From an uncultured bacterium (GTDB lineage Bacteria > Armatimonadota > Hebobacteria > CAIYQO01), in the NCBI GenBank assembly GCA_964638715.1, contig CAZWZF010000019.1, positions 4,836 through 68,835 on the forward strand: a stretch of DNA of 64,000 nucleotides, in the 5' to 3' direction. Shown here one piece after another: positions 22,342 to 55,223 of the stretch (positions are counted from its first letter, which is position 1; each line of letters opens with the position of its first letter). Made by a program: the position numbers and the translations under genes. Under the pieces are notes generated by a model. The model worked only from the letters and a program-made list of their open reading frames with translations, made no database searches and was not told the DNA's origin.

Positions 22342-25300
22342 CTATTCTACCGTAGCATTTCCCCATTGCGCGGGTTCCAGCCGCGCTTCATTTGGCACAT
22401 CCTGGGTAACGCCGGATGAGAAGCTGTGATTGCTCCAGTATACCCGGGTGGCGGTGGTGTTGCCGGTTTCGTTGCCGAAAATGTAACCGACATCCATGCG
22501 CTGGGTGGTGCCGGGCTTGGGGGTGAGTCCAAGTTTGTTCAATGGCAGATAAACCACAGCATTAAAACCGCCATCGACTTTTTCATATTCCATTTTAACG
22601 GTATCAAGAATTTCAATCTGGTCGATACTCTCTTTACCGGTAGGAGAGGTGAATACAGTCGGTGTGCCAGTGAATCCTGCGACTTTGGTACGATATATTA
22701 CTGCGAACGGTTTGTCGCCATGCCGGCTTACCAGTATGCGGATATCACCCGGTGCCGGTGTTGTGCGTTTTGTGTCGGCGTTCGGGTCGGTGGCTATTTG
22801 AATATCCATCATATTTCCGCCTTTGAAAGGCATATTAGCTTCCGGGGTAGAGTTAACTAATTGTGAAAGCGACTTTACTTCATAACGCACCTGCAAATCA
22901 GTCGCACTGTAAGCGGTTTTTACTGTAAAGCCGCGTTTCTCATCAACATTCAGGGTTACTCCGCGAATATCCAGCCAATCCGGTTTGTTATCAGTGCGTG
23001 CAAGTATCAGCGATTGTGATTTTGCTTTTTGTGATGACCAATCTGCCAATGCTTTTGCTGCGGCTTTGCTTTCTTCATCGGTAATAGTGAGTTTGCCGTC
23101 AAATCGTATCAGGCTGTTCAGTCCAGTAACTTCCAATATGCGTCCGTCCTGGTCGCCGCCCATGATGAACCAGCGGCCATCTTTAATTTTCACTAATTGC
23201 CCGGTGAACCATTCGCATTGTATCTGGTCTGCTCCTGTTTCGCCGGAGCGGCCATCTTTCATAACAGTACCGATGGGCACACCATCAGTCGTAAGTAATT
23301 GTGCTTGCCCGAAATAGCATGAGTAGCCGGTAATTCCGTCAGTAATCCCCATGTTTTTGGTGCATCCATAGAGGACGCCTGCTTTAGGTATTGGGAACTC
23401 ATACATATCGTGCCAACGGCAGCCAACGCGGTAACGCCATTGAATTTTGCCGTCTTTGCTCCAGTATGAAATCGGCCAAATTTCAGTTTTGTCGAGAAGT
23501 TTAATATCTGTACCTGCGTAAAATAATACTGAACCATCTGCAGGATTTACAGTGAAATCAGACGTGTAGTTTCCGCCGTGAATTTCACCATAGTTATATT
23601 GAACAAATGTTGCATCATCATATATGGGAACGCCGTCTTCCCGGATGGTTTTTGGCGATAACCGCTGCCAGTAAAGAACTGTATACATGCTGGTGGCGTA
23701 AAAATTCAGATCGGCATCTATAGTGCTGTGGGCACCTTGTGCTTTCATCTTTGTTTCCCGGGTTTCATCTTTCTGAATTACACCGTCGCCATTGATGTCT
23801 TCCCAGAATAGCCAGGGGATTTTAGCGAGTTCCTGCCAATCCTTTGCACCTTGACGCCATGATAAAGTTGACCATGGGTTGATAATACCGGCGCAAGCCT
23901 CGAAATGGTCGCCGCGGCGCACCCACAGGAATTCTCCGCGTATAGGGTTGCCGCCATAACTGCCGCCGGAATGCATATATTGTTTACCGTTTTTAGCGGT
24001 AAAGACGATATTGTTTACCATGTGCGGCCAGAAATACGGGGTATCCGGTTTTGCTTCAAACATGAGAGACGCTGGTTTTGAAGTTTTCTTGTCAAGGTCA
24101 ATTTCCCATTCTACATTCTGGCAATATACCCGGGTCGGGTCATTCGGATCCATAGTTATTGGAGTGGATACATAAGCCGGACCGAATTTATCATCTAACA
24201 ATTTCCCGGTGGCAGGATCCCAAATACTGATTCGTTTGGGTGAAAAATCATGTTCGGTAACCCATAACTTGCCTTTGCTGTCTATTGCCATGCCGCGCGG
24301 GTTCAGGAAGGTATCCGGGTCCCATTTGCCGGCGCGGGCAGGACTGACATTGCCGGTTGTTTGCGGCGGGTTATCCATCGCGCGTCCGCCGGTTTTTCCG
24401 ATAGAGCGCAGGTATTTCCCATCTTTATCATAGACACTGATATTTTGAAGTTTTCCGGTATTGCTTGCGTATACCATGCCGTCAGTTCCAACAGCAACGG
24501 CTTGCGGATTATCCAGATGGTCAGCAGCAAAAGGAACAACCGCAGGATTGTCATTCAGGCTGGTAATTTTCACCAATTTACCATCAGAAACAGCTATTAA
24601 ATCTGCGCCTGCCGCGGTGAGCCAGGTTATTTTAGGTGCGGTGAATTTTGATAAAATCTTGCCTTGCTTTGCATCGTATACGAATATGGTGTCTGATGCG
24701 CAGTCAGCCACATACAATTTTCCTTTTATCCATGCCATGCCGGTGCAGAATGTCGCCGGAGTCGCGGTAGGATTTGTCGGTGCTTTCTCTCCGCGTTTTA
24801 ACGGTGAAACTTCTTCGCCGTTATGTTCTGCCCATAGGTCTCCACGCAGGAAGTTTGTCTGTTTGCCGTCAGTGACGCCGTACGCTCGTATCTGTTTGTC
24901 AAGATTAAGATATGCATATACCAGTTCACCGTCAGTAGCGATATATGAACCGCCGACACGGTATCCCCACTGTTTTTCGCCTTTTGCATTAATTCCTATA
25001 AGTCCGGTGCCAGCTTCGGAACCATCCCAAATTAGCAGGCCGCGTTCTCCTGCAAAACATACATCAGACGGACAACCCCAGTCGCCGCCCCAGGCACCTT
25101 TGCCATCAGGAGTATTGTAAGTAGGAGTGCCGGAATTGCTTACGCCTAACACCAGTTTGGTTTTTATTGGGTCATGGGTAACGCCTTTCCAGGTATAATC
25201 GCCGGGAGGCAGCACGCGTCCAACATCATCCAACCCATCCCAGGATTCGATTACTTTTCCCATCGGTCGCGATTCTGCAGCGACAATATTGCGAACGCGG

Positions 25301-26244
25301 TCGCCTTTATCATTAATTAAGGTAATTGAGGTAATATTTTCTTTGGGAAGGTTAAAATTAAATTTCATGGGCAATTGCCTGACCGGGGGCAAACCTTGTT
25401 GGGTTAACTCTTTTGGCAAGTTTCCTTTTTCTGCAAAAATAACTTTACCCCATGAACCGGTGGATTGGTAGGTAAATCCGGCCTTTGACATCAAGTCAAC
25501 AGCCCATCCGCCACCGTAGGAATGTGCCCCGGTGGCGTCACTCCATTGAATCTGAATCGCTGCTGCGCTTAAATCACCGCCTTTGAATGGGCCTGGCGCA
25601 CCCAGCGTAGTCCAGGGAATGCGGTATTCAAATGTAAAACCCTTTCCATCTTTCCACTTTTTATAAACAGCTTTAAATTTGTTATTCGGCACTATTCCTT
25701 TATGATAATCGTGGGCGTCATGGTAATTCATGCCATATTTTAAATGCAGCACCGGTTTATTTTTTGGGGTGTAATTCCACAATGTCATGTGTACCAGCAT
25801 TTCACTCGGGTTGCGGTCGTATCCGCCAATTTTCAGCGGGTATCCCAGGCTGGGGTCAAGATTCAGACGCAACTGAAAAGCATCGCCATCCCAACCGAAA
25901 TCAGGGTTTACCGCCGGGTCAGCCAGGTTCAGCATTGGCGTGGGGTCTTTTATGCGACTGGAGATATATAATGCGTCTTTATCGTACATAAATGCGGTGC
26001 GGGCACTCTGGTATTCCATCGATGATTCTACAACATAGGTCAATATTTCTCCGCTCAAATCCCAATCCTTCAAGTCGCCATCAATCTTTATTTTTCCGGG
26101 AGTAGGGACAACAAATACCCGTTGATTATGGTAAACGCCTTGTGCAAAAGCTGGTGTTAACAAAAATACAATCATTATCAACATGATGAAAGTAATTAAT
26201 TGATTCCTGGTAAACAGAGATTTTGTAAATTGTGATAAACGCAT
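22342..26244 (-). CDS. Secreted 1300-aa protein: CBM9/DOMON-like - FlgD Ig-like - NHL beta-propeller - CBM9/DOMON-like (paralogue 1)
   Basis: Signal peptide; IKIDGDLKDW; WDGLDDVGRVLPPGDYTW; SGTP..TPDGKGAWGGDWG; NHL-like NPRGMAIDSKGKLWV; ends DVPNEARLEPAQWGNATVE. Confidence 0.8.
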   Translation of the reverse strand: MRLSQFTKSLFTRNQLITFIMLIMIVFLLTPAFAQGVYHNQRVFVVPTPGKIKIDGDLKDWDLSGEILTYVVESSMEYQSARTAFMYDKDALYISSRIKDPTPMLNLADPAVNPDFGWDGDAFQLRLNLDPSLGYPLKIGGYDRNPSEMLVHMTLWNYTPKNKPVLHLKYGMNYHDAHDYHKGIVPNNKFKAVYKKWKDGKGFTFEYRIPWTTLGAPGPFKGGDLSAAAIQIQWSDATGAHSYGGGWAVDLMSKAGFTYQSTGSWGKVIFAEKGNLPKELTQQGLPPVRQLPMKFNFNLPKENITSITLINDKGDRVRNIVAAESRPMGKVIESWDGLDDVGRVLPPGDYTWKGVTHDPIKTKLVLGVSNSGTPTYNTPDGKGAWGGDWGCPSDVCFAGERGLLIWDGSEAGTGLIGINAKGEKQWGYRVGGSYIATDGELVYAYLNLDKQIRAYGVTDGKQTNFLRGDLWAEHNGEEVSPLKRGEKAPTNPTATPATFCTGMAWIKGKLYVADCASDTIFVYDAKQGKILSKFTAPKITWLTAAGADLIAVSDGKLVKITSLNDNPAVVPFAADHLDNPQAVAVGTDGMVYASNTGKLQNISVYDKDGKYLRSIGKTGGRAMDNPPQTTGNVSPARAGKWDPDTFLNPRGMAIDSKGKLWVTEHDFSPKRISIWDPATGKLLDDKFGPAYVSTPITMDPNDPTRVYCQNVEWEIDLDKKTSKPASLMFEAKPDTPYFWPHMVNNIVFTAKNGKQYMHSGGSYGGNPIRGEFLWVRRGDHFEACAGIINPWSTLSWRQGAKDWQELAKIPWLFWEDINGDGVIQKDETRETKMKAQGAHSTIDADLNFYATSMYTVLYWQRLSPKTIREDGVPIYDDATFVQYNYGEIHGGNYTSDFTVNPADGSVLFYAGTDIKLLDKTEIWPISYWSKDGKIQWRYRVGCRWHDMYEFPIPKAGVLYGCTKNMGITDGITGYSCYFGQAQLLTTDGVPIGTVMKDGRSGETGADQIQCEWFTGQLVKIKDGRWFIMGGDQDGRILEVTGLNSLIRFDGKLTITDEESKAAAKALADWSSQKAKSQSLILARTDNKPDWLDIRGVTLNVDEKRGFTVKTAYSATDLQVRYEVKSLSQLVNSTPEANMPFKGGNMMDIQIATDPNADTKRTTPAPGDIRILVSRHGDKPFAVIYRTKVAGFTGTPTVFTSPTGKESIDQIEILDTVKMEYEKVDGGFNAVVYLPLNKLGLTPKPGTTQRMDVGYIFGNETGNTTATRVYWSNHSFSSGVTQDVPNEARLEPAQWGNATVE

Positions 26245-26265
26245 TTTGGGACTCCTTTAGATAAG

Positions 26266-26281
26266 TGTATACCGGATTACA
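26266..26281. promoter_or_regulatory. LacI-type operator A (TGTAwwCCGGwwTACA), copy 1
   Basis: TGTATACCGGATTACA, 22 bp upstream of 26244 start; recurs at 29870 and 57683. Confidence 0.8.
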
Positions 26282-26326
26282 AAATTAGACAATATATTTA
26301 AAATAAAGTTTTGTATGACTTTTTGT

Positions 26327-26432
26327 CAGGATTAACATGATTAACAGGATTTTGCTTCGCAAATATTTATCATGTCATGAGTTATCGCAATCACCAATTT
26401 AATTTTTAATTTTTAACTTTTAATTTTTAATT
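26327..26432. repeat. 9-bp (CAkGATTAA) and 7-bp (TTTTAAT) short tandem repeats
   Basis: caggattaa catgattaa caggatt at 26327-26351; aattttt-type heptamers at 26396-26432. Confidence 0.6.
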
Positions 26433-27444: not shown

Positions 27445-27475
27445 ATCAATTTCCCTTATATATATTTTTTATTTA

Positions 27476-27550: not shown

Positions 27551-27608
27551 TGGTTTAGATTATAATTCCCATCATAACCATTCAATCCTTTCTTTGTGAT
27601 TATATTAA

Positions 27609-28798: not shown

Positions 28799-28806
28799 TA
28801 AATCAA

Positions 28807-31456: not shown

Positions 31457-31470
31457 TGAAAAGGAATTAT

Positions 31471-31566: not shown

Positions 31567-32601
31567 CTACCCCTCTAACACCGTATCAAAAAACGCAATG
31601 ATATTCTCTGTTGGCATATCTTCGGTGAATACCTGGGATGGTCCGATAAGCAGGCCGCCGACGGGGGCGAAGGTGTCGAGGACGCGGAGCGTGGCATCGC
31701 GGACATCTGTCGGTTTTTTATGCACCAGAGTCAGGTGGCTTACGCCGCCGTCCAATGCCAGTCGTCCTTTGCGGAACTCTTTCAAACGGGCGTGGTCGTT
31801 ATCTTTCACATAGTCGGGGAAGGGGTTCCAGCAATCTACACCTATTTTGATAAGGTCATCCAGCAATGGCCAGATGTACCCGCAGGAGTGGAACCATACT
31901 TTTGCGCCGTGAGCATGAACGATATCGAATGCCTGTTTCCATGCCGGTTTATAATAGGTGCGCCACATCTCCGGGCTTATCATCAATCGGTCCATGGTGC
32001 CGATATCGTCATCGGCGCGGACAACTTCGATTTCTCCCTGACCGGCATTGAGCAGCTTTTCGATATAGCCAGTGGTGAACTCAGTCATCTTCTCAACATA
32101 AACCTGCATGTATTCTTCATCGGTGACATCAAACAGCGCGTTTTCATTTCCGCGCAGCATGTTGTGAATCTGGTAGCCAAGTCCGATGTGCCCGGCGGAT
32201 ACCACCATGTCCTTCGCCTTTATTTCCAAAGCCTGGGCATAAATATGCGAGAAATCGAAATCTTCCACTCGCGGCCATTCGTGAGTTTTCAAATCTTCAA
32301 TAGTATTGCATTCCAATAAACCAAAGTTATGCTGTGATGAATTGCCCCAGAAATCCAATTCAGTGCCGTCTGCCGCAATCTTTTGAGTGCCGGTGTATTT
32401 ACCCATCACAGCATTCCATTCCCACACGCTGAATCCGTCGATGCCGGTTTTTAAATACAAGTCATTCTTGCCAGTTGCGCCATAATTTTTATACACTGCC
32501 GACATGGTATCGCCATGGGCATCAAAAGCAATCGGCGGCCGGTCAGGAATACCGCCGTTCAATGCAGTCAATATTCGGTTTCTGCGGGTCATCGTTGTCA
32601 T
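31567..32601 (-). CDS. Uroporphyrinogen decarboxylase (URO-D/MtaA-CmuA) family protein
   Basis: MTRRNRI...PDRPP, DDDIGT..LMISPEMW, FHSCG, DGGVS, GPSQ..DMPTENI. Confidence 0.88.
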   Translation of the reverse strand: MTTMTRRNRILTALNGGIPDRPPIAFDAHGDTMSAVYKNYGATGKNDLYLKTGIDGFSVWEWNAVMGKYTGTQKIAADGTELDFWGNSSQHNFGLLECNTIEDLKTHEWPRVEDFDFSHIYAQALEIKAKDMVVSAGHIGLGYQIHNMLRGNENALFDVTDEEYMQVYVEKMTEFTTGYIEKLLNAGQGEIEVVRADDDIGTMDRLMISPEMWRTYYKPAWKQAFDIVHAHGAKVWFHSCGYIWPLLDDLIKIGVDCWNPFPDYVKDNDHARLKEFRKGRLALDGGVSHLTLVHKKPTDVRDATLRVLDTFAPVGGLLIGPSQVFTEDMPTENIIAFFDTVLEG

Positions 32602-32618
32602 TTTATGTACCAGTTTTT

Positions 32619-32694
32619 GACATGATTAACATGATTGACATGATTAAATAACTCCCCTCCTTGACAAGGAGGGGTGTCCGAAGGGTGGGTGGTT
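32619..32694. repeat. 9-bp tandem repeat (rACATGATT x3) plus REP-like palindrome
   Basis: gacatgatt aacatgatt gacatgatt 32619-32645; AACTCCCCTCCTTGACAAGGAGGGG... 32650-32694. Confidence 0.8.
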
Positions 32695-34756: not shown

Positions 34757-34765
34757 AATGTGTTC

Positions 34766-38680: not shown

Positions 38681-38707
38681 TAACCTTCTCCCCTTTATAG
38701 AAATGCG

Positions 38708-40594: not shown

Positions 40595-40597
40595 AAT

Positions 40598-41668: not shown

Positions 41669-41686
41669 AATATTTCAAACCTTTTA

Positions 41687-44600: not shown

Positions 44601-45664
44601 ATCAGGTATGACGACCAGGCATCCAGACGTTTTTCAAATGCTATGCGGTCTGTATCTGACATCGGTTTAGAATATTTTGCAATTTCTTCCAACCAACGAA
44701 GGGTTGGCAAGTCAATTGCCGGGGCGAATTCTGGTCGTCCAATTGATGTCAGGTATGAAATATATTCGGCACCGGTGACTGGTTTCATGCCGGTACGGCG
44801 GGTGAACTCTTCCAGTTTAACTTTATTATCATTGGCAATGTAGTCGCGCAGGTTTTGCGTCTGGTTGCCCCATCCCCAGTAAGTGAGCAGGCCTAACCTG
44901 CCATTTACAGCATATCCAGTGGTATCCCATCCATAACAGAAACCGCCAAAGTTTGGATATCGTCCATTTGCCTGGGCAGTAAGAATCATACGTTGGCTCA
45001 TGCCGTTAATTTCTGCCGGATTGTTGCCGACCGGGAAGAAACTGGTGGGACGCGTATCGGGGTTAACCATAGTTATCGCACCGCTGCGTGCCATGACATC
45101 TAATGAACCAATGCGTCCTGCATCGCTGGCACCTAATGAAAATGCGGCGGTTAAACCGGATTCTTTGAATATTTTATCTATGCTGTCCCAATGTGCTTTC
45201 GTCTTTGCGGCGGCTTTCACCGGGTCTTTACGTTCTTCATTTGTATATTCCGGGTCGCGCGGCATACATTCATCCTGGGTGGAACCTGCCGATTTGCGTA
45301 GCGGGCTGGTTAATGTCATGCGGTCAAATGCTGTAGTGCCGTTGATTAGCAACTGGTAATCACCTGGTGCAAGACTGGCAGTATTAAGCCATAAGATATT
45401 ATTTTTTCCTGCATACAGCAATATTTTACCATCACTATTTACCGCTTCGAGCCGGATATCACTGTTTGGAGCGATGCCGCTTATGGCAAGCGGCACTATT
45501 TCACCTATGAAATACGCGGTGCGTTCCATAGGAAAAATTGCCACAGGCGCTGGTGTTTGCGCCGGTGCAACAACTGTCTGGGCAATTCCTGTCAAAGAAA
45601 TACCCATAGCAAATGCGGTTAATACCACATAACGAAACCAGAATGATTCAAATTGTGTATGCAT
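41687..45664 (-). CDS. Secreted 1325-aa protein, possible GH42-like catalytic and trimerisation domains plus MG2-like Ig domain
   Basis: Signal peptide; VGILFS...LGYTPRFVTEEEL...KALIIIG resembles GATase-like trimerisation domain; HPDG...LPINAPAGKWTV resembles MG2. Confidence 0.55.
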   Translation of the reverse strand: MHTQFESFWFRYVVLTAFAMGISLTGIAQTVVAPAQTPAPVAIFPMERTAYFIGEIVPLAISGIAPNSDIRLEAVNSDGKILLYAGKNNILWLNTASLAPGDYQLLINGTTAFDRMTLTSPLRKSAGSTQDECMPRDPEYTNEERKDPVKAAAKTKAHWDSIDKIFKESGLTAAFSLGASDAGRIGSLDVMARSGAITMVNPDTRPTSFFPVGNNPAEINGMSQRMILTAQANGRYPNFGGFCYGWDTTGYAVNGRLGLLTYWGWGNQTQNLRDYIANDNKVKLEEFTRRTGMKPVTGAEYISYLTSIGRPEFAPAIDLPTLRWLEEIAKYSKPMSDTDRIAFEKRLDAWSSYLMGLYKEGYSAFSKNLRSVDPSIKNTSSVQVDHCPTLQGQYFPEAYSPLDLQYQSTWNDQVGGPDYLNQSLFVTALLEMNRGNKPTWVSNAMASAHGLSDLPGKMMRTTAQGLAFGGTGNGFACEGFSNLLGGMNRATNWENIKGKSGEMDVISARDFLDRFSSLSVNGHTNHGVGILFSKTQYGRQYVAMGYGTAAFKALTALTRLGYTPRFVTEEELQANQVTDVKALIIIGQTMPLPTSVNAGIASYIKQGGKLLIDGSTSVSFPGASKISYSFPFSQAGKPHSWGAPNMVNGDNDTILYERWHPELAKAFSSALGDTGHACFTSYKGTGAKASILQIDGGTDAKYLIATNDSHIKNQADWYQIKETLLPAKSLSANAVIYDCTEEQSLGTVKPLICDLTQTTARVYAILPRGIAATALSATQKVSTGETLSIQVEFIDAGKKKLNAVLPFNLSIIHPDGTIYQEFYRATTDKGTFNISIPLPINAPAGKWTVAVRSQLNGTLTSLPVTVESAKTPVLMTPMIDTVIVRERGLIESMLSKGSTVVVPIFDSPQSSTYQKTAEELKKILETRGVTVDIRLKPEMNTYTIGYSLSPAQVTENSKAENGQAIGKIKRETLNGNDWDSGLSGYRFYQPIILLDIAGLKDDKGKAVSDNPMAESLDNTGILWPKVTAAFPGSGRAVVQGVHWAFGAKIPALVIQAADMDGIMAGIRALDKLPEDKLTPQIQNAKATLFREYYIGGQPEQSKSGRLSAKGLTTTIKPKPLTLTFTDAKPLPVEEVAFPKPSEKTYYPAPAKFEPKQYVIQLRMPEGYIDSDTASFLVPDMRFSDAVMLPLDIAQEGKVHITADGLFRYSDRQPCWQAQWEDIINLREKVVPKERRPIQFTIQIDGKDAGTISDVITRDREVKLELASSSAGMKPKSVVEEVVVQVSGDIILPAGKHKVMLIPHNIVDGHLNSIYIGVDAPVIPEK

Positions 45665-45679
45665 TATACTCCCCTTTAA

Positions 45680-47539
45680 TTATTCTAAAATATAAGGTGT
45701 TCCCTGGTTAATTTTAACGGTAACGCAACCGTTGATGATATCTATTTTTTGCGGATTTTCTCTGCCGTCTGCTGTTAACTGATACAAAGTTGCAGATTTT
45801 AGATGTGTCCAGTCTACCGGCAATTTCCAGGTGCGCTCGCAGCCATCTTTACTGTAGAAATATATCTTTTTCTCACCACTCCAGGTATCCGGCCACATTC
45901 GGTCGTACCCTATGCCAAAGATGATGTCACCATTCCATGCCATGAATCCTTCACGATCCCATTTTGCCATGGTCCCATCGCTCCATGACGCATGAATACA
46001 GCCTTTTCGCAAGGTTAATCGATGACTGCCGGCTGTCAGTCTTATTTTTACAGCTAAATCACCGGCATATTCATTTACTATTGTAGCTGGAAATTCGAGT
46101 TCCTGAATAAAATTATCGTCAATCCATAATTCTGCGGTACCACCAGATGGTGAGTAATAGCGGATAATTAATGAATAATCGCCATCTTTCAGCACCGTTG
46201 CTTCCACAGTATTTGAGGCGCTCATGGATTCATCAAGTCCGTCCACTACCTGTCCGCAGGATAACCATGGCTGGTCGGTAATTTTTGCGGTTCCGGTATT
46301 AATGCCATTTTTTGCCAGCATTTCTGAAACAAAGTTATTAGTTCTATCGTGAATGGTATAGCTTTCTATTTTCACCCGACCGCGGTGTTCATCTTCACGT
46401 GTGGTATTTGCTCCACCCGGCAACCGGTAATTACCTTTGCCAATGTGGTACAATTCCTGAATTACTGTGAGATAAAAGCCTTCAACTACCTGTGACTGAA
46501 CTCGCCATTCTTCCAAAGGCTGGTATGGCGTTTGCGGAAGGTTATCTGCACTGATTTTTGTCATCAATGCTCCGCCATTCGCGGCGATTTCATATTTCAT
46601 ATTATTATTCAGCAGTTTTTCGCTTAAATCCAATGAATACGCACCCTGGTTGCCGTATACATGCATAGGCTCTTCGCCGCGCCGGTTGGAGTTTCCCTGG
46701 CAATAACCGGATTGGATACGGCTGTAATCGTTCAGGGATAATCCGCCGTGATTCCAGTTATACATGGTCCAGTCACCGGGACCTTCGCCGCCGGGTTCAG
46801 TGCCTTTTGAACGCAGGTAATTTAATATCTTTTCGCGACCTTCAAACTGCGTAGCTGCACTGCCGCCCAATTCGCCATCCGGGTAACCAACGTTGCAATT
46901 ATTTCCGGCCAATGATAAAACATCAACATATAAAATCGGTGGCGGGTAGGGGAGATGGTTATAAAATCCATCAATTATTTCCTGTGCCAATCCCGAATCC
47001 CAAAGATTTTTGTAATTTACGATTGCGAATATATCTGATGGATTTCCTGCTTCGACATAAGGCATGGTAGCTGTTTCTGTCGGGATAGAATAAGGAATGT
47101 AGGCTTCACCCTCGTAAGGTCCGCCGCAATTCAATACTTTGCGGGTATAGTAACATTTATTCTCGCGCATTCTTTCAAAGAATTCACGCATTTCCGGGTA
47201 ATAGGCAAGTCCGACATTTACATCAGTAATATTAGTGTGAAAGGATATAAATGAATTGCAGTTATCGCGCATGTCAACCATGAAATCGGCAAGTTTTTGC
47301 CAGTCGTTATTAACACGAAAAGTAGCGCGATTCCAGTAAGGCCATGAACCGTCCCAATTGCAAATGCCGGTATCACAACCTATGAAACCACTGGTAATTA
47401 CATTGGAAATCACAGTTTTATCCAGCAGGTTATTCACTGATTTTATGGCTCGCGCGCATTCTTCCTGGGCATTTTCTTTTTCAGGAAGGCATAATCGCCA
47501 GATGAAATAAGTTGACCATTTTGGTGCTTTGTTTGGCAT
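45680..47539 (-). CDS. Endo-alpha-N-acetylgalactosaminidase-like (GH101-related) protein with inserted CBM6/35-like module
   Basis: SFHTN, ILYVDV, C-terminal IYFYSKDG..RTWKLP.DW..LYQLT.DG; CBM-like GDYSLIIRY...LTAGSHRLTL. Confidence 0.6.
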   Translation of the reverse strand: MPNKAPKWSTYFIWRLCLPEKENAQEECARAIKSVNNLLDKTVISNVITSGFIGCDTGICNWDGSWPYWNRATFRVNNDWQKLADFMVDMRDNCNSFISFHTNITDVNVGLAYYPEMREFFERMRENKCYYTRKVLNCGGPYEGEAYIPYSIPTETATMPYVEAGNPSDIFAIVNYKNLWDSGLAQEIIDGFYNHLPYPPPILYVDVLSLAGNNCNVGYPDGELGGSAATQFEGREKILNYLRSKGTEPGGEGPGDWTMYNWNHGGLSLNDYSRIQSGYCQGNSNRRGEEPMHVYGNQGAYSLDLSEKLLNNNMKYEIAANGGALMTKISADNLPQTPYQPLEEWRVQSQVVEGFYLTVIQELYHIGKGNYRLPGGANTTREDEHRGRVKIESYTIHDRTNNFVSEMLAKNGINTGTAKITDQPWLSCGQVVDGLDESMSASNTVEATVLKDGDYSLIIRYYSPSGGTAELWIDDNFIQELEFPATIVNEYAGDLAVKIRLTAGSHRLTLRKGCIHASWSDGTMAKWDREGFMAWNGDIIFGIGYDRMWPDTWSGEKKIYFYSKDGCERTWKLPVDWTHLKSATLYQLTADGRENPQKIDIINGCVTVKINQGTPYILE

Positions 47540-47552
47540 GTGTTTCCTTTAC

Positions 47553-50500
47553 TTATTTAATTTTATCACCGTAAAACCATACTTCGGCAAGCCCAACCGC
47601 TACTAACGGTGTATCCCATGGGTAATCGTAAATGTTGCGGATAATAAATTTTACATAACGTGTTCTGGCTTTTATGGGAATATCGTTGCCGATATATGTT
47701 TTAGTATTAGTTGCTCTTGGGAAGACAACAGTACCCCAGAATTGCAGATTATCAGGTAAATTTTCAGATATATAGATATCAACTGTTTTTGCACCTACCG
47801 ATTTGTCTCCGCCAAACGCGCGTTCATCGTTATAGTTCCATACATGCATGTTTTTCAAGTCATAGATTGAGCCAAGGTCAAATGTCATGGTAGGATTTTT
47901 TTCTTTATACGGTTGCCTGGTATACCATTGGTTTTGTAATAATAAATCATGCTGTACCGGTACTGTATCCATATTTAATCCGCTGCCATCTACAATTTTC
48001 TTTATATCATCTGTTGCATCTGGCGATGTGACGGTAACACCCTGTATAGGTTTGTAATTGCTATTGTAAATTGATATCGATCCCGTTGCCTTACTATCTA
48101 TAAGATAGTAATGACTAACTTGAACTGATACCGATACAGTAGTTGGCATTGTTGGTATTTTCTCTGGTAAAGGCGTTATTTGCAAGTCTACTGATGATTG
48201 ATTTTCTGCAAATGCAACATATCTTGGCAAAGGTTTATAATCAATTCCTGCTTGTGCATTTCCACTAACAATCAAGGTTGCTTTCACAGGTTTTGTAATA
48301 TTGCCATTTCGGGTTATTTTAATTAATCCCGGTACTATTGCTGTTTTACTCCTGTCTGTTTGTGGCGAAATTGTTTCTATGGCAATCAATGGCATTTTTG
48401 CCGCGTCAAATTTGTCATCTTCCATGTATAAATATTCAGTTGGTATGTGCTCGATTTGCTGGCTTGTTCCTTCCCATACCAGATGAAAATCTTCTTTGGA
48501 TTTAGGCAATTTATGTTCTATAACAATTTTAATCCTCTTGCCGGCTTCTAACATCAATGGTTCAGTAAAGAACTTAGACCCATTAGAGTTCCAACCCTCA
48601 ACCATTAATTTACCGCCTATCCACATTCTTACATATTTACCATAAATACCGAGTTCGGTAAGTCCAGAATATTTTGCTTCTAAAAAACCGCTCCAGCGGA
48701 CAGAACCTGGGGTTGCGTCGCGAGGGGTAATTTCGGTTTTTTCAATATCAGGTGTCGGTTGTGTTAAGATTGTCATTGGATGTTTCACATCATACCACAA
48801 ACGTTTTGAAACTGCTTCATCTTCAGGTACAATTAATTCTTTACCGCTTAAATCTGCAGACATGAAATATTGTGTTTTTAACCCGCTGCCTTTTGCTAAT
48901 GCGGGGGTAGGGGTGGTACCTGTTATCTCAATAGTTCCATTTTGCCTGCTGAATTGGTTCCAACCGGTTATTCGGTAAACCGGACAGTTGTTCCAGCCAG
49001 AACCATAGAACAGAACATCACCGTTTGTTGATTTAACAAGTGAACCGCCTTCCAGCATGTCATATTGAAAAGGTGATTGCGCATTAAATCCACGGTCATT
49101 CGGATCAGTTGACCACCATGTGTATACACTGGCAGGTAAGCCGTCGTCAGCATGTCGGTCAAAAATACTACCGGCATACAAACCGTCTTCTGTCCAGAAT
49201 ATTACTGGCTGTACTACCTTATCGCATACACCGATTGTTCCATTAACTATTCCTGCAATTCGGCAGGGATATTGTAATTGTCCAGGCAAGTTGTTTTGTT
49301 TCGCGGCATGGTATCCTGATTGCCAAAGCAGGTTTTTATCTTTATCGTATTTGCTTATGGCATTGCTATCAGTCTGGTTTGCTGGCCAGGCAAACCCGTG
49401 TGCAGCACCATAAGTGCCATCCGCAGCATATCCGTCACCTTTTCCGCCATACTGGATAACATAAATATTACCGTCATTATCTCCACACAGTGCTGGTGAA
49501 CTTGTGTATGGTGTAACCGGTCCTTCTTCAAACTTTGACCAATCCCAGATCGGGGCACCTGCAGCAGTATATCCCTGAGTGGGGAATTTTAGCCAGGCAG
49601 CTTTGTTTTTAGTATCCCATCCGCGCATCAGGAATATATTTAAATCTTGGTCCATCCATAATGAGCCACCCATATGTTCAACACTCTGGTTATACAAGCG
49701 AAATTCATCGGCCTGGAATTCATTGTCTCCATTAAGGTCGGTCCAGGCAAAACCGCGATGTCTGGCGCGACTACCGCTATCTTTCGGATTTTCACCTAAC
49801 TTAGTTATTGCGTCCAGCCATTGTGTCGGTAATTTTTCAATAGGTGTTTTGCTCCATCCCCAGCGGTCATCTGCGATGAGCAATGATAATATTGATACCG
49901 GACGCAGGCATTTTCCTGCTTCATCAACTTTCATCAATAGTCCTGAATGTGCTCCAGAATAGATATATGTGTCGATGGGCCCATTTTTGTTTGCTGCGCG
50001 CCGCATTACCCAGTGCGGTACAGCCATTTTATATCGTCCAACCAGGGTTGAAGGCGTATTCCCACCCCATTTATAACAAGCGTGCGGGTACCATGTTTTA
50101 TTTGCCGGATTTATTTCGCATTGCATTATCCATCCCCATTGCGAATCTATCCAGACATATTTGGGGTCAACCGGGTCAGGGGCGGGGAAGGTGTAAAATT
50201 GTTGTCCACCGAACCATTCGGCTAATACTTTACCGTCTTTATCAAAATGGGCAGTACGTCGAGGCGCACTTTCATATTCAGAAATTACAAAACCGCCTTT
50301 ACCATCTCCGGCAATATCGCTGACATTTAGAAAATTAGCCGGTTCATAAAGTCCTTCTTCGCGGCCACCAGCTTTTCCATAAGTCTTTATTAATTTAAAA
50401 TCAGCATCATATTGTTTAACTTGTTGGCAGGCACCGCCATCAGCTATGAAGATATTATCGTTTACGTGATCAATAGCTATACGACTGGCTGAGGTTAAGC

Positions 50501-51371
50501 CATTGATTTTTTCTATGGGAGTTTTATCGTTTCTGGTAACAGAAAATAGTGATGTTTCATGAAGAATAAGTAATCGGCCATCTTTAGTCAACGCGATATC
50601 GCGTAAACCGTTATCAATTGTTAAAGAATCGATAATTGTGTAATTGTCTGGATTTACCCATGCAATATGACCGTTATGTGATGCTGAAACTAATTGGTCA
50701 TTGAATGAATCAACAAGTTCTGGTTTGACAGGTTTATCAACCGTTCCGATATTAAGGCTTACAGTTCTCTGTCTTTCACCTGTCATGGCATCAAGGAGAT
50801 ACAGGTTATTTTTTTTAGTATTGCCATTCTGCGATTGAAAATAGAGTTTTTTTCCATCAACAGATATATCTGAACCACCATCCCAACCTTCTAAAGTAGG
50901 TGATACCCATTGATAATCGCCATTTATTGATATTTTAGCGTTTTGGGGAGAACCTTCGGAAGATGCGGATGTCAGATATAGGAAACCATTTTCACAAGAA
51001 ATTGAAGCTATCCCGCCGTGTTGGCCGGGCCATGCTTTTTCTTTGTAGCTGGTACCTACAGAAAAAAGATATTCTGATTTCATTCCCTGTGAGGTAAGCA
51101 GTTTCCAGGTATATTTACCGGCAGCAGTCGGTTTTCCAGCAGAGTCTAAACCGTCCCATGAAATAATTTGTTTACCGACGTCCTGTTGGTCTGCATTCAG
51201 CAATGTGCGTACCTGATGGTTTTGCGAGTCATAGATTGCCAGTGAAACTCGTCCGGCTTTTGGCAAAACATAACTGATATCAACACAATATACTGTAAAA
51301 GTAAAGGCGAAGAGACAAAATATCATAATATATTTTGATATAGAAATAGATTCATTAAAACATGATTTCAT
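47553..51371 (-). CDS. Secreted 1272-aa FlgD Ig - NHL propeller - PA14 - Calx-beta-like - discoidin-like protein (divergent paralogue)
   Basis: WDGLDSAGKP..AGKYTW; WPGQHGG; APRRTAHF; PA14 GSGLKTQYF..SVRWSGFL; GNAQAGIDY; FDLGSIY.L..MHVWNYN...VGLAEVWF. Confidence 0.75.
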   Translation of the reverse strand: MKSCFNESISISKYIMIFCLFAFTFTVYCVDISYVLPKAGRVSLAIYDSQNHQVRTLLNADQQDVGKQIISWDGLDSAGKPTAAGKYTWKLLTSQGMKSEYLFSVGTSYKEKAWPGQHGGIASISCENGFLYLTSASSEGSPQNAKISINGDYQWVSPTLEGWDGGSDISVDGKKLYFQSQNGNTKKNNLYLLDAMTGERQRTVSLNIGTVDKPVKPELVDSFNDQLVSASHNGHIAWVNPDNYTIIDSLTIDNGLRDIALTKDGRLLILHETSLFSVTRNDKTPIEKINGLTSASRIAIDHVNDNIFIADGGACQQVKQYDADFKLIKTYGKAGGREEGLYEPANFLNVSDIAGDGKGGFVISEYESAPRRTAHFDKDGKVLAEWFGGQQFYTFPAPDPVDPKYVWIDSQWGWIMQCEINPANKTWYPHACYKWGGNTPSTLVGRYKMAVPHWVMRRAANKNGPIDTYIYSGAHSGLLMKVDEAGKCLRPVSILSLLIADDRWGWSKTPIEKLPTQWLDAITKLGENPKDSGSRARHRGFAWTDLNGDNEFQADEFRLYNQSVEHMGGSLWMDQDLNIFLMRGWDTKNKAAWLKFPTQGYTAAGAPIWDWSKFEEGPVTPYTSSPALCGDNDGNIYVIQYGGKGDGYAADGTYGAAHGFAWPANQTDSNAISKYDKDKNLLWQSGYHAAKQNNLPGQLQYPCRIAGIVNGTIGVCDKVVQPVIFWTEDGLYAGSIFDRHADDGLPASVYTWWSTDPNDRGFNAQSPFQYDMLEGGSLVKSTNGDVLFYGSGWNNCPVYRITGWNQFSRQNGTIEITGTTPTPALAKGSGLKTQYFMSADLSGKELIVPEDEAVSKRLWYDVKHPMTILTQPTPDIEKTEITPRDATPGSVRWSGFLEAKYSGLTELGIYGKYVRMWIGGKLMVEGWNSNGSKFFTEPLMLEAGKRIKIVIEHKLPKSKEDFHLVWEGTSQQIEHIPTEYLYMEDDKFDAAKMPLIAIETISPQTDRSKTAIVPGLIKITRNGNITKPVKATLIVSGNAQAGIDYKPLPRYVAFAENQSSVDLQITPLPEKIPTMPTTVSVSVQVSHYYLIDSKATGSISIYNSNYKPIQGVTVTSPDATDDIKKIVDGSGLNMDTVPVQHDLLLQNQWYTRQPYKEKNPTMTFDLGSIYDLKNMHVWNYNDERAFGGDKSVGAKTVDIYISENLPDNLQFWGTVVFPRATNTKTYIGNDIPIKARTRYVKFIIRNIYDYPWDTPLVAVGLAEVWFYGDKIK

Positions 51372-51415
51372 AATTCTCCTGCCTTTTTATAGATATTTTA
51401 TAATATTAACAAATT

Positions 51416-51445
51416 GGGGAACGTTTTAATTAATATCCGTTCCCC
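51416..51445. terminator. Intergenic hairpin (stabiliser or partial terminator)
   Basis: GGGGAACG-N14-CGTTCCCC just after the stop of 51462-55223. Confidence 0.45.
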
Positions 51446-51461
51446 TATTAATATTTAAAGA

Positions 51462-54400
51462 TTATTCAACCAGTGCTGTGCCCCATTCTGCAGGTTCTAA
51501 TCGACTTTCATTTGGAATGTCATTGGTGACATTGGCACTGAAGCCGTTGTTCATCCAGTAGGCGCGGGCAGCACATTGGGTACCCATGTCGTTGCCAAAA
51601 AGGTATCCCAAATCCATTTTTATAGTTTTCCCCGGTAATGGCTTCCAGTTAATTGCAGTTAACGGTAAAGTAACTGTAGCAGTAAATCCGTTGGTTCCTT
51701 TTCTGTAATCAAGTGTGAAAGTATTGATTACTTCAATTGAATCAAATGATTCTGTGCCGGTGGGTGATTTAAGTATAATCGGCTCTCCCTTGAAATCAGC
51801 GACTTTAGGTCGATAAAGTACAGCATACGGCTTATTTGCCTGGCGGGTTATTAATACCCGCAGGTCGCCTACAGCAGGTTTTTTACGTTTTTCGTCAGCA
51901 TTCGGGTCGGTAGCTATTTGAATATCAAGACAGTTACCGCTATGGAATAGATATTTCAGTTCGGTCTCTGCATTAATTAGCTGATTAGGTGATGTAATAT
52001 CAAATTTAATGTAAAGATTATTGTCATCATAAGCTGCTCGTGCTTCAAAACTGCGATTATTATCCACTGCTTTCGATACTGGTTCTGCCATATCTAATGC
52101 GGTACGACCACGAACGATAGTCAGTTTTTTACTGCGGGCGATAGATGCATTGTATTCATCAAATTTAGATTTTGCCAATGCAGCATCTTCCGGGGTTATT
52201 TCGTAAATTCCACCGGTGATTGGTTCAATGGTATCCAACCCGTAAACTTCCCAGACGCGTGAATCCTGACCGCCATGAATGATGAAATATCTTTCCGGAC
52301 CATTCGGGTCTGGACGTAGTTTAACAAATTCTCCACCTTGGCCTTCCGGTTGTCCTTCATCTGCACCTCGGCCACCTAGGCGACCATCGCCTAATATTGC
52401 GGCGACATAAATGCCGTCTCGGGTGAATATATGGTTGCACCCGAAGTATGTCATCATGGCGAAGTAATCGCCTGCGGTACCCATCGGTCCGGTCATACCG
52501 TGCAATTTTCCAGGGCCTACCATAGGCATATTCAAAGCATAATGCCATCCGACTATGCCATTGTATTGCCACAATGCCTCGCCTTTCTCATTCCACTTAA
52601 CCAAATTTCCATTAGAAGAATAACTGAATCCATCTGGATCGCGCCAGAAATAACCGCCGACTTTGCCGACTAATGGTGTTGATGCAAATTTCGAAACATC
52701 ATAATGCGGCCAACCGCCTTCGGTTTTGCCATCAGCTTTCAATTGATGACCTGAGCTGAAATAAATATTTAAGTCAGCGTCAACCCAGGCCATGTTAAGT
52801 CCCCATATTCCTTTGGGCAATGGTTTAACTTCTTCTTTCTGGTAAATCTGGTCATTATTTTCATCCTGCCACAAATAATAACCGTTAGGGAATACTTTTT
52901 TGTCACTTAACAATGGACTTCCTTGACCACCATAAAGAATTGAATCGTAAACACCAATAACGGCAAGGAATGGTTTGAATACATCACCATCGCGGTGATA
53001 CATCAATCTTTTAAATTGACCGCCACCCGTCATATATTGTTTTCCATCATTAGCGGTGAATATTTTGCACAGTCCTTGATAACCATCAGGATTCGGTTCT
53101 TCTGCCATATCAGGACTGGTTTTTCGCCAAATAGTTGTGGAGGGTGTGCCTTTTAGTTTTTTCCAGTCAATAGTCCATAGTACGTCGTGAGCTAATATTT
53201 CATCAGGTTTAGCGGGGTCAATATACCCGTAACCAAAATATGATGAACCTCCGAAATATTCCGCCAGATTTTTTCCGGTCAATGTATCCCATACGCTTAT
53301 GCGTTTGGGTCCGTCAGCAGTTTCGGCAACCCACAGGCGGTTTTGTTCGTCAAGAGATATACCGCCTGGCATGAAAATGCCTTCCGGGTCGTATTTGCCA
53401 ACTGCCGGACGTCCGCCTGGTTTACCGAGATGACGCAATAGTTTGCCGTTTGCATCAAATGCGTCGAAATCCTGACTTTTGCCGGAGTTGGATACATAAA
53501 TCGTGCCGTCGGTACCGACTGATATGCCAGTTGTATTGTCAAGTCCGGTTTCAACAATAGTTGTTACCTTTCCATCTTGTACCTTCAGGATTTTATCTGT
53601 GCTGAGCACAGCTAATGATCCATCTGGTTGAATAGACATCCGGCGTGGTGCCGGTACTGTCCATGTTGTCAATAATTCACCTTTGTCAGCAGAATATATG
53701 CCAATTAAATCGCGTTTTGCGTAACTTACGTAAATTTTACCGGCATTGTATGCTAATCCGGTTACTTTATCAGTTTCTTTTGTTCCGCCATCTGGTGCGA
53801 TTAATGATGGTTTGTTATTTCCAAACGTTGTCGGCCGGGAATCAATCAGGTCTAATACCTGGACACCAAGTTCATTAAATCCCCAGTCGCCAGCGATATA
53901 TAGCTGTTTGCCGTTTGTCGCTATATGTTCCGCAACATGTTTGGTTCCCCACATTTTTTTGCCATTCAGGTCTACTCTAATAATTCCCCATCCATATTCA
54001 CAGCCGTTCCATGCCAATACCATGCCGCCGGGAACTGTGCAAACCGTTGATGGTGTGCCATGGTCGCCGCCCCAACCGCCTTTGTTGTCATTAGTAGGCC
54101 AGGGGGGATTGCCGGAATTATGCACGCTGAATGATACTTTCCATTTTATCGGATCATGCTGGACGCCTTTCCAGGTATATTTTCCCGCCGGCAGCGGCTT
54201 GCCTTGATCATCCAATCCATCCCATGCTTCGGTATTTTTACCAGCACGACGATCCTGCTGCGGTATAAGCATTCGCGCAACGTTATTTTTCTCGTCAAAT
54301 AATTGAATTGATATCTGACGGTCTTTGGGCAATTCATAACTAAATTTTAACGGCAATGGCTTTTCCGGCGGCATTCCTTCTTCTACCATTGTCTTGGGAA

Positions 54401-55223
54401 GATTGCCTTTTTCAGCAAATGACATTTTACCCCAGGTGCCGGAATCCTGGAAAGGAAATCCCGGTCTTCCCATAACATCATAAGCCCAGGCAGCACCGCC
54501 AGCGGTTTTTAGGCCATCGGGGGTACTCCAGAATACGGCAAAACAAGTTGCCATCAGGTCGTTAGCTTTTGGTGCGCGTTTCAAACCCATGGTATCAAAA
54601 GGTATTCGATATTCGAGTGTATATCCTAAACCGTCATCAGCTTTCTTGTAAGCACCCTGAAAGTGATCAGCGGGGATAACGCCATTCGCGGATAAGTCTG
54701 GACGAATGGGCAAGGTTTGATTAACCATGCTGCGAAATATTGACAGGTTAGCCTCTTTGCGATCGGTGAAATACCACAGAAACATGGTGGCAACCGGCGG
54801 CAAAGTATCTGTTTTATTGAAGGTGCTGTTATTAATAGGATATGGCAAATCGGGGTCAAGGCTGAACCAAACCTGGCAGACATCGGCATCCCAGGCTTTT
54901 TCCGGGTCAACTTTCGGGTCGTGACGATTCATCATGGGCGAGTTATCGCGGACAATTGCTGAAATATAGAGCGCATCTTTGTCATACATCAGTGCGATTT
55001 TTGCACCTTGTGTTTCCGCTGTTTCAGCCACGACATAACTGTGAATTTGACCGGAGAGATCCCAGTCGTTGAGATTCCCGTCAATTACTACTTTGCCAGG
55101 TACAGGAACCGCATAAATTTTCTTATGCAATCCGCGGCCTACGTCGGCAAGAGCAGAGATGCTGCTCATAATGATAAATGCTGCCAGCAAAATGGCAGTC
55201 GTCAAACGGTTCAAATTTTTCAT
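51462..55223 (-). CDS. Secreted 1253-aa CBM9-like - FlgD Ig - NHL propeller - CBM9-like protein (paralogue 3)
   Basis: VVIDGNLNDWDLSG; WDGLDDQGKPLPAGKYTW; SGNPPW..WGGDHGTP; ends SANVTNDIPNESRLEPAEWGTALVE. Confidence 0.8.
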   Translation of the reverse strand: MKNLNRLTTAILLAAFIIMSSISALADVGRGLHKKIYAVPVPGKVVIDGNLNDWDLSGQIHSYVVAETAETQGAKIALMYDKDALYISAIVRDNSPMMNRHDPKVDPEKAWDADVCQVWFSLDPDLPYPINNSTFNKTDTLPPVATMFLWYFTDRKEANLSIFRSMVNQTLPIRPDLSANGVIPADHFQGAYKKADDGLGYTLEYRIPFDTMGLKRAPKANDLMATCFAVFWSTPDGLKTAGGAAWAYDVMGRPGFPFQDSGTWGKMSFAEKGNLPKTMVEEGMPPEKPLPLKFSYELPKDRQISIQLFDEKNNVARMLIPQQDRRAGKNTEAWDGLDDQGKPLPAGKYTWKGVQHDPIKWKVSFSVHNSGNPPWPTNDNKGGWGGDHGTPSTVCTVPGGMVLAWNGCEYGWGIIRVDLNGKKMWGTKHVAEHIATNGKQLYIAGDWGFNELGVQVLDLIDSRPTTFGNNKPSLIAPDGGTKETDKVTGLAYNAGKIYVSYAKRDLIGIYSADKGELLTTWTVPAPRRMSIQPDGSLAVLSTDKILKVQDGKVTTIVETGLDNTTGISVGTDGTIYVSNSGKSQDFDAFDANGKLLRHLGKPGGRPAVGKYDPEGIFMPGGISLDEQNRLWVAETADGPKRISVWDTLTGKNLAEYFGGSSYFGYGYIDPAKPDEILAHDVLWTIDWKKLKGTPSTTIWRKTSPDMAEEPNPDGYQGLCKIFTANDGKQYMTGGGQFKRLMYHRDGDVFKPFLAVIGVYDSILYGGQGSPLLSDKKVFPNGYYLWQDENNDQIYQKEEVKPLPKGIWGLNMAWVDADLNIYFSSGHQLKADGKTEGGWPHYDVSKFASTPLVGKVGGYFWRDPDGFSYSSNGNLVKWNEKGEALWQYNGIVGWHYALNMPMVGPGKLHGMTGPMGTAGDYFAMMTYFGCNHIFTRDGIYVAAILGDGRLGGRGADEGQPEGQGGEFVKLRPDPNGPERYFIIHGGQDSRVWEVYGLDTIEPITGGIYEITPEDAALAKSKFDEYNASIARSKKLTIVRGRTALDMAEPVSKAVDNNRSFEARAAYDDNNLYIKFDITSPNQLINAETELKYLFHSGNCLDIQIATDPNADEKRKKPAVGDLRVLITRQANKPYAVLYRPKVADFKGEPIILKSPTGTESFDSIEVINTFTLDYRKGTNGFTATVTLPLTAINWKPLPGKTIKMDLGYLFGNDMGTQCAARAYWMNNGFSANVTNDIPNESRLEPAEWGTALVE

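Follow-up and report, generated by a model that had tools for sequence, protein, structure and literature searches.

A secreted double-propeller protein family expanded in the glycan loci of an uncultured Armatimonadota bacterium

Introduction

What do large secreted proteins built around two consecutive beta-propellers do in the glycan loci of a bacterium? The question is raised by a 64,000-nucleotide stretch of DNA from an uncultured member of the Armatimonadota (GenBank assembly GCA_964638715.1, contig CAZWZF010000019.1, positions 4,836 to 68,835; 'the window' means this whole stretch), in which four genes encode such proteins. A sequence-only reading of the window had described them as an uncharacterised paralogue family and had taken their shared core for a catalytic module. 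Here we find that the double-propeller family is real, expanded and uncharacterised, and we tentatively favour a role in glycan processing. Its component folds are known (CBM9-like, FlgD-Ig, NHL propeller and generic six-bladed propeller); we could find no published description of their combination, of the family or of its function.

Results

Four paralogues share a two-propeller core

The four genes all lie on the minus strand and encode two types of protein, A and B, here compared with a hidden Markov model (HMM) of the core whose seed alignment includes the three type-A genes of the window:

22342..26244, minus strand: P0001, 1300 amino acids (aa), type-A member; core HMM E 2.8e-237 (own sequence in the HMM seed alignment)
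34766..38680, minus strand: P0002, 1304 aa, type-A member; core HMM E 1.2e-215 (own sequence in the HMM seed alignment)
51462..55223, minus strand: P0003, 1253 aa, type A; signal peptide, CBM9-like domain, FlgD-Ig domain, NHL propeller, second propeller, CBM9-like domain
47553..51371, minus strand: P0004, 1272 aa, type B; signal peptide, FlgD-Ig domain (38-91), two-propeller core (30-817), PA14 domain (829-954), weak Calx-beta-like and discoidin-like modules

By BLASTP, the three type-A proteins are full-length paralogues at 29-36% identity (P0001 versus P0003, 36%, E=0; P0001 versus P0002, 29%, E 4e-145), and P0002 aligns with P0004 across ~440 aa at 27% identity (E 6e-34); judged from sequence, the similarity among the four open reading frames (ORFs) is far above chance. 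The single architecture that the sequence-only reading had ascribed to the three type-A ORFs is therefore borne out, and the motifs it had listed (IDGDL.DW, WDG.DD.G..P.G.Y, NSG.P...WGGD(H/W).P, PKRIS.W, G.DGR/QDSR..E..G and D.P.E.R....WG...E) are readable in the translations and the family alignment, as are WPGQHG and APRR in the translation of P0004. P0004 itself had been described as a FlgD-propeller core with swapped flanks. The core is indeed kept, and more of it than had been claimed: positions 8-728 of the 728 in the HMM match residues 30-817 (E 1.3e-89), so P0004 retains the complete two-propeller core. Its PA14 flank is solid (E 1.3e-17 to the PA14 domain of RsgI3 in the Protein Data Bank (PDB); 23.2 bits in Pfam, just under the cut-off of 24), while the proposed Calx-beta-like and discoidin-like modules are weak (Pfam E 0.07 and 0.0013). 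All four proteins begin with a hydrophobic, signal-peptide-like stretch without a lipoprotein cysteine, as read from the translations.

The type-A architecture is laid out along P0003, whose residue numbers are used throughout, as follows:

54372..55142, minus strand: N-terminal CBM9-like domain, residues 28-284; profile matches in the PDB to 1i82 (E 2.4e-4) and 7nwn (E 1.1e-3)
54123..54350, minus strand: FlgD-type Ig domain, residues 292-367; Pfam FlgD_ig, profile match in the PDB to FlgD (6e-8), strands at model residues 8-83
53244..54122, minus strand: propeller 1, predicted six-bladed and NHL-type, residues 368-660; holds WGGDH (384-388), E409, GGR605, E634 and R641
52194..53243, minus strand: propeller 2, predicted six-bladed, residues 661-1010; holds W785-D787-N789-D791-E798 (calcium-loop-like), P839/Y841, D936-G937 and E960
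51465..52184, minus strand: C-terminal domain, residues 1014-1253; hhalign match to the N-terminal CBM9-like domain, Pfam CBM9_1 E 0.006

The predicted core is one rigid unit of known component folds

We ran AlphaFold2 on P0003 285-1010 with a 49-sequence alignment and also folded propeller 2 alone (P0003 660-1020). The core is modelled as a single confident rigid unit (predicted local distance difference test (pLDDT) 93.1, predicted template modelling score (pTM) 0.91), in which the Ig domain (model residues 8-83) is followed by a six-bladed propeller (~107-373) and a second propeller (~391-725). Propeller 2 alone reached a pLDDT of 92.1 and a pTM of 0.90.

As modelled, propeller 1 is an NHL-repeat six-bladed beta-propeller. 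Structural alignment with VIA-align placed it on the NHL domains of TRIM2/TRIM3 (Z 18.7-19.1, root-mean-square deviation (rmsd) 2.5 Å, 238 residues aligned), and the Lin41 filamin-NHL unit aligned to the core at Z 18.0-18.2. A full-length family profile searched against the PDB matched NHL-derived designs (2e-28), PknD (4e-22), TRIM71 (1e-18) and PAL (2e-4), and the Pfam NHL model (PF01436) scored 21.6 bits in P0001 and 20.0 bits in P0003 against a cut-off of 20. Like the family, TRIM71/Lin41 (filamin-NHL) and TRIM2/TRIM3/Brat (NHL) place an Ig-type domain before a six-bladed NHL propeller (Z 18.0-19.1, rmsd ~2.5 Å, 237-242 residues). However, these are intracellular eukaryotic proteins that bind RNA or protein, whereas the family is secreted and bacterial, has a second propeller and CBM9-like domains, and is encoded in glycan operons.

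Propeller 2 is, by the same model, a generic six-bladed propeller; Foldseek returned only generic WD40/BamB-type matches for it, and residues 836-898 matched the designed propeller Bagel8 at 1.6e-12 (profile against the PDB). For the whole core, Foldseek found only generic tandem propellers (template modelling (TM) score ≤0.42), and the matches in the ESM Atlas were unnamed NHL/FlgD_ig clusters only. Structure prediction and fold search, which the sequence-only reading had put forward as a check, thus yielded a confident fold with AlphaFold2, Foldseek and VIA-align and matched no known catalytic family.

The flanks are of binding type

CBM9-like domains had been proposed at both ends of the type-A proteins. 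At the N-terminus, Pfam CBM9_1 (PF06452) exceeds its cut-off of 23.4 bits in all three (24.1, 30.3 and 40.1 bits, the last for P0003). At the C-terminus, the assignment comes only through the sub-threshold CBM9_1 match and an hhalign match between the C-terminal and N-terminal profiles (probability 94.4%, E 8.5e-8, 163 columns). Going by these profiles, the two domains are mutually homologous and weakly CBM9-like, the link of the C-terminal one to CBM9 being indirect. The N-terminal domain resembles the CBM9 of Thermotoga maritima Xyn10A (1i82, profile E 2.4e-4), although only its first ~80 residues align. The invariant Trp of the family, W111, is aligned with a Trp of 1i82 (chain position 72), which we take to be a ligand-stacking residue, and the second Trp of the CBM9 stacking pair falls outside the aligned stretch. 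In xylanases this module flanks a known GH10 domain, whereas in the double-propeller family it flanks an unassigned core, with sugar binding predicted. Pfam FlgD_ig (PF13860; cut-off 27) scored 39.7 in P0002, 27.1 in P0003 and 34.6 in P0004, and fell below the cut-off in P0001 (22.5).

The family is large, widespread and expanded in its own genome

A word-indexed search gave 337 matches at E ≤0.001 among 8000 scored candidates, and homologues among the matches listed were named 'hypothetical protein', 'sugar-binding protein' or 'FlgD Ig-like domain-containing protein'. HMMER run on 1.84 billion cluster representatives gave 2283 matches at E ≤0.001, 1362 at ≤1e-10 and 473 at ≤1e-30. According to record titles, 23 loci in Genome Taxonomy Database (GTDB) genomes come from Kiritimatiellia, Lentisphaeria, Planctomycetia/Pirellulaceae, Phycisphaerae, Brocadiia and Verrucomicrobiota metagenome-assembled genomes (MAGs), and of 121 genomes sampled evenly from the phylum of the window, 29 have a match at E ≤1e-20 (own genome counted). 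Orthologues are 50-70% identical, and of equal length, between classes.

The 5.33 Mb genome that contains the window yielded 65 matches in a tblastn-type search. Searched with the core HMM, its ORFs gave 59 matches at E < 1e-5 and 50 at E < 1e-20, and 42 with E ≤1.4e-81 cover both propellers. These 50 members (755-1727 aa) total 200,613 bp, or 3.8% of the genome, and share only 25-50% identity. A subclass of ~1700 aa has a longer N-terminus and a ~360-aa insertion inside propeller 1 (HMM positions ~220-230), for which no Pfam family was found in comparable representatives; its own-genome members lie on contigs C10 (86900-92065), C64, C39 (two genes), C34, C7 and C13.

We found no Pfam or NCBIfam model for propeller 2 or for the full protein, nothing at the NCBIfam curated cut-off, and, in full-text literature, no paper on the double-propeller family. 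The best 120 of the 337 matches (1000-1294 aa) had only CBM9_1, FlgD_ig and NHL matches in Pfam, plus SGL (PF08450) in one. Of 28 long representatives, 25 were retained after excluding P0215, P0263 and P0270, which are S8 proteases with FlgD_ig repeats or leucine-rich-repeat proteins that match the Ig domain alone. The sole additional Pfam family among the 25 was PSII_BNR, in two of them. No fusion of the core to a known catalytic domain was found among the 120 listed homologues or the 25 long representatives, and no fused form longer than 2193 aa was found, which is weak evidence.

Polar residues are kept on the propeller top faces

Conservation was counted over 150 representatives of 50%-identity clusters, with covered sequences as the denominator, and over the 50 own-genome paralogues:

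D387 (WGGD): 120/124 representatives; 32/50 own-genome paralogues
H388: 92/125 representatives; 35/50 own-genome paralogues
E409: 125/127 representatives; 48/50 own-genome paralogues
R605: 128/129 representatives
E634: 130/135 representatives; 40/50 own-genome paralogues (plus 7 with D)
R641: 131/135 representatives; 49/50 own-genome paralogues
D787: 49/50 own-genome paralogues
E798: 123/124 representatives
Y841: 106/118 representatives
D936: 98/110 representatives
E960: 106/108 representatives; 42/50 own-genome paralogues (plus 3 with D)

The strand order of the AlphaFold2 model assigns D387/H388, E409, R605 and E634-R641 to D-A or B-C loops in blades 1 and 6 of propeller 1; for Y841 and E960 it gives D-A loops of propeller 2. 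The D-A and B-C loops form the top face of a propeller, where propeller enzymes and binders hold their ligands. From strand order and general propeller geometry, the near-invariant polar residues are thus placed on the top faces. The aspartate of WGGD, which had been singled out as the key target for mutation, is not the best-kept residue; E409, R605, R641 and E960 are better kept.

Family genes lie in glycan operons

Three of the four window genes belong to one long operon-like run:

31567..59147, minus strand: 12-gene co-directional cluster with gaps of 4-262 bp, including P0003, P0004 and P0002; in gene order, a pseudopilin-like N_methyl/DUF1559 gene (57903-59147), a GH29-like gene, an FAD oxidoreductase (PF12831), P0003, P0004, GH101C/CBM35, a 1325-aa MG2-domain protein (41687-45664), a GxDLY+GDSL esterase, a 628-aa protein of no assigned kind (38708-40594), P0002, a 687-aa TIM-barrel GH-like protein (32693-34756) and a URO-D-like gene (31567-32601)

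P0001 is preceded by GH130, GFO/IDH/MocA and URO-D-like genes. To place these neighbours in context, 250 genes at most four genes from the 50 own-genome paralogues were clustered. The recurrent families were N_methyl (23), GntR plus periplasmic-binding regulators (8), GDSL esterases (8), URO-D-like (7), PF12831 (5) and MG2-domain giants (3+2), each of them itself expanded across the genome; GH78, GH4, GH29, FGE and a glycyl radical enzyme were also found. A GDSL esterase lies within two genes of 8/50 paralogues, whereas 500 random draws averaged 1.7 and never exceeded 6; GDSL is the sole family above all draws, an enrichment that fits enzymes requiring a deacetylated substrate. N_methyl genes lie within two genes of 13/50 paralogues (random mean 5.9, maximum 15), a roughly twofold excess inside the random range, and PF12831 near 3/50 (random mean 1.5) is not enriched.

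Nine loci in other genomes, of PVC bacteria (Planctomycetota, Verrucomicrobiota and related groups), have comparable surroundings: GH29-like, GH63-like, GH4, GH2 and GH78 genes, sulfatases, DUF1559 genes, GntR regulators and a glycyl radical enzyme. A pseudopilin-like gene stands directly upstream of the family gene in two of the loci (L033 and L035). In L035 (Lentisphaeria MAG, 7803-15193), an orthologue of P0004 (32% identity, E 1e-122) also directly follows the orthologue of P0003, so that the pairing of type A with type B is conserved. Within its own genome the type-A gene is followed by a type-B gene in three loci (window 47553-55223 and contigs C24 and C60). Type-B proteins are recognised by an Ig domain at the N-terminus, PA14 at the C-terminus, Q or N replacing the WGGD Asp, and D replacing E960.

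Traces of the locus were also found in sequencing libraries. DNA runs labelled lake water or freshwater metagenomes contain the whole 40500-60400 stretch, and two metatranscriptome libraries from one freshwater study contain 58% and 35% of the sampled words of 47553-55223. Contigs from the RNA libraries, 100% identical to the window (40500-60400), cover parts of P0003, P0004, the MG2 gene and an HlyD-type gene from 59598, leaving 56436-59091 uncovered. Since DNA can occur in RNA libraries and contigs cannot rank expression, this is presence in RNA libraries and not proof of transcription.

Comparison with known propeller enzymes

For propeller 2, GH33 sialidases and GH93 enzymes were considered and rejected. 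GH33 enzymes have a conserved arginine triad with a Tyr/Glu nucleophile pair; residues 660-1010 hold no invariant or 90%-conserved Arg, the ground on which the sialidase reading was dropped, and the Z values are only 13-15 in a flat list of matches.

GH74 xyloglucanases have two tandem propellers, as the family does. Their substrate lies in the cleft between the propellers, each of which contributes one catalytic carboxylate (Asp); the family has one near-invariant Glu on a top-face loop of each propeller (E409 and E960). In contrast to the six-bladed propellers of the family, those of GH74 are seven-bladed, and no GH74 chain was present among the matches listed in the fold and sequence searches, which does not exclude a relationship. 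The beta-propeller folds of polysaccharide lyases (PL11, PL22, PL24, PL25 and PL42), which work with a metal and an Arg/His/Tyr catalytic set, have 7-8 blades, and none of these families was among the matches listed by sequence or fold, again without excluding them.

Other features of the window and genome

Several neighbouring genes deserve mention in their own right. The genome has 153 pseudopilin-like N_methyl/DUF1559 genes and 72 URO-D-like genes (PF01208; HMM from seven neighbours); the latter lie within two genes of 8/50 family genes (random mean 3.5), with window copies at 26431-27444 and 31567-32601. In an apparent anaerobe, this expansion of a methyltransferase/decarboxylase fold in glycan loci might serve sugar O-demethylation. 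The 1325-aa protein (41687-45664) has only a sub-threshold match to MG2 (alpha-2-macroglobulin-type), and paralogues of 1150-1325 aa adjoin other family members (clusters of 3 and 2). The 628-aa ORF (38708-40594) has no Pfam family. The 687-aa ORF (32693-34756) has weak matches to TIM barrels of GH97/GH66/GH31 type, and its paralogues (cluster of 3) also flank family genes. On sequence features, both ORFs are candidates for unrecognised glycosidases.

Elsewhere in the window, a gene for an RNase_T exonuclease-WYL protein adjoins one for a 1158-aa DUF6079 protein (17669-21926), and a plus-strand DUF1835 and NERD nuclease pair (29949-31456) breaks the minus-strand run of glycan genes; both may be defence or mobile inserts. 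A region of low GC (5275-10942; 36-38% versus ~44%) encodes a glycan-biosynthesis set of DegT aminotransferase, Bac_transf sugar transferase, ATP-grasp ligase and GT4 glycosyltransferase.

Discussion

Our favoured reading, to which we give a little less than even credence, is that the family consists of secreted glycan-processing proteins that are new carbohydrate-active enzymes (depolymerases of lyase or hydrolase type, or proteins with another glycan-modifying activity). We favour it because the core is the only large conserved unit, folds as one confident rigid unit, occurs with no modules other than lectin-type ones, which are exchanged between subfamilies, and is never seen fused to a known catalytic domain among the homologues surveyed. 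The same reading draws on the polar top-face residues kept in paralogues at only 25-30% identity, the identity of orthologues between classes, the preferential adjacency to deacetylating esterases, and the RNA-library contigs identical to parts of P0003 and P0004. It also draws on a glycan-operon setting shared by the genome itself and other PVC taxa (GH29-like, GH130, GH78, GH4, GH2, GH63-like, sulfatases, FGE, glycyl radical enzymes and GntR/periplasmic-binding-protein regulators). The earlier argument, that a conserved core with interchangeable sugar-binding accessories is what a catalytic module looks like, holds as regards the architecture and the exclusively binding-type companions; catalysis itself is unsupported by any sequence or fold match. 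We regard the catalytic interpretation of the core as plausible.

If it is correct, the Ig domain, NHL propeller and second propeller would form the working module. The substrate would meet a polar patch on the top faces, drawn from propeller 1 (the sector of blades 6 and 1) and from propeller 2 (its D-A loops), probably near the propeller junction, while a calcium loop would stabilise propeller 2. The flanks (in type A a CBM9-like domain at each end; in type B PA14 and a weak discoidin-like module) would hold the protein on the polysaccharide. Each of the fifty paralogues may serve a different glycan, and conserved type-A and type-B pairs may act in sequence.

Several observations weigh against an enzyme. 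No glycoside hydrolase, lyase or esterase family was matched by sequence (Pfam, NCBIfam, and PDB single-sequence and profile searches); these searches gave only NHL, FlgD, CBM9, PA14 and weak SGL/PAL matches. The nearest folds to propeller 1 are binding modules (TRIM-NHL, Lin41 filamin-NHL, the PknD sensor and YWTD), with propeller enzymes ~4 Z units lower when aligned to the core (lactonases 14.6-14.8, PAL 14.6, phytase 13.9). The VIA-align matches of propeller 2 form a flat generic list, from Z 15.9 for Bacillus phytase (1poo) and 15.2 for GH93 arabinanase through NHL domains and GH33 sialidases to 13.1 at rank 50. As for the residues, D387 of WGGD is replaced (by N, V, Q and others) in 16/50 own-genome paralogues and unaligned in 2, with Q in P0004. 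E634 and R641 occupy the places of the signature Asp and Arg of the NHL repeat (profile positions 3-20 are covered by the Pfam NHL match at 618-635). The W785-DxNxD-E798 motif lies, in the model, in an A-B hairpin on the bottom face of propeller 2. It looks like a structural calcium loop, its 787-798 portion presumably resembling integrin FG-GAP calcium sites. With conserved residues falling on NHL and calcium-loop signatures, conservation is partly structural, and the balanced set of E/D and R/H could be a buried inter-domain salt-bridge network.

These points lead to the main alternative, which is quite possible even if we would sooner expect it to be wrong: non-catalytic glycan-capture proteins, a PVC counterpart of the SusD/E/F type, that bind extracellular polysaccharide and hand it on to the DUF1559 pseudopilin-like proteins or to neighbouring enzymes, with one glycan per paralogue. 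All recognisable domains are of binding type, and the nearest structural neighbours are NHL and YWTD propellers that bind ligands. BT1954, a surface propeller that captures B12, aligns at Z 14.9, and much of the conservation is accounted for by repeat signatures. The Foldseek matches to the whole core and to propeller 2 include BT4663 (4a2m), a Bacteroides hybrid two-component sensor whose periplasmic tandem propeller recognises a polysaccharide fragment; its TM score is nevertheless low (0.23-0.28), its repeat type differs, and the family lacks transmembrane and signalling domains. The functional analogy to SusD/SusE/SusF of Bacteroidota is possible, with many paralogues, at least one per glycan locus and binding-type domains, and a count of about fifty copies per genome is reminiscent of SusD-like families. 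There is, however, no relation in sequence or fold. N_methyl genes near 13/50 paralogues, and directly upstream in L033 and L035, fit a hand-over to pseudopilin-like proteins, but the enrichment is weak, the random maximum of 15 exceeding the observed count. Surface retention would also be unexplained, as no lipoprotein signal, cysteine or anchor is readable in the N-termini. Finally, known glycan-binding proteins, SusD/SusE/SusF among them, are usually poorly conserved, whereas here orthologues keep 50-70% identity between classes and E409, R605 and E960 are kept in >95% of covered representatives.

We consider it improbable that the proteins serve, as secreted adhesins or matrix components, to fasten cells to particles or to one another, with propellers as protein- or surface-interaction modules that take no direct part in glycan breakdown. 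The Foldseek matches include teneurin and teneurin-like proteins, the family proteins are large and multi-copy, and PA14, discoidin-like and Ig modules are also known from adhesins. Against this, both in their own genome and in other taxa the genes are packed tightly into co-directional operons alongside those for glycosidases, esterases and sugar regulators, and Pfam detected no adhesin-typical repeats, anchors or sorting signals.

Very improbable, lastly, are non-glycosidic propeller enzymes of lactonase/SGL or PAL type, acting on sugar lactones or oxidised sugars from the adjoining FAD (PF12831) and GFO/IDH/MocA oxidoreductases: for all the weak SGL match in P0001 (E 0.0025), one homologue named sugar lactone lactonase by one source, and the Z values and profile match (E 2e-4) noted above, we reject SMP-30/gluconolactonase because its best score (PF08450, 17.9, in P0001 only) is below the cut-off of 26.3 and the conserved acidic residues are wrongly positioned, in B-C and D-A loops (E409 in a B-C loop of the model) and not on the innermost strands that line the central tunnel and carry lactonase metal ligands, while PF12831 is not enriched and we know of no precedent for a 1300-aa secreted lactonase in fifty copies.

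Returning to the reading of the family as glycan-processing enzymes, a bolder form of it, which we hold to be doubtful, is that the double-propeller core represents a novel carbohydrate-active enzyme class and is the main endo-acting depolymerase of anaerobic PVC bacteria, with some fifty specificities per genome deployed in type-A/type-B pairs. If true, a family on the scale of CAZy (>2000 sequence clusters) would have been overlooked because its folds resemble binding modules. In lakes, oceans, sediments and guts, PVC bacteria account for a major share of the degradation of complex and sulfated polysaccharides. To our knowledge these bacteria lack SusC/D, the machinery behind glycan capture in Bacteroidota, and no obvious endo-acting enzyme is present in many of their loci. 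The double-propeller family is a strong candidate for a missing part of the PVC machinery, whether it acts enzymatically or in capture. The annotation of PVC glycan loci would change in either case, and the proteins, if enzymes, would be a new family in which activities of industrial use might be sought.

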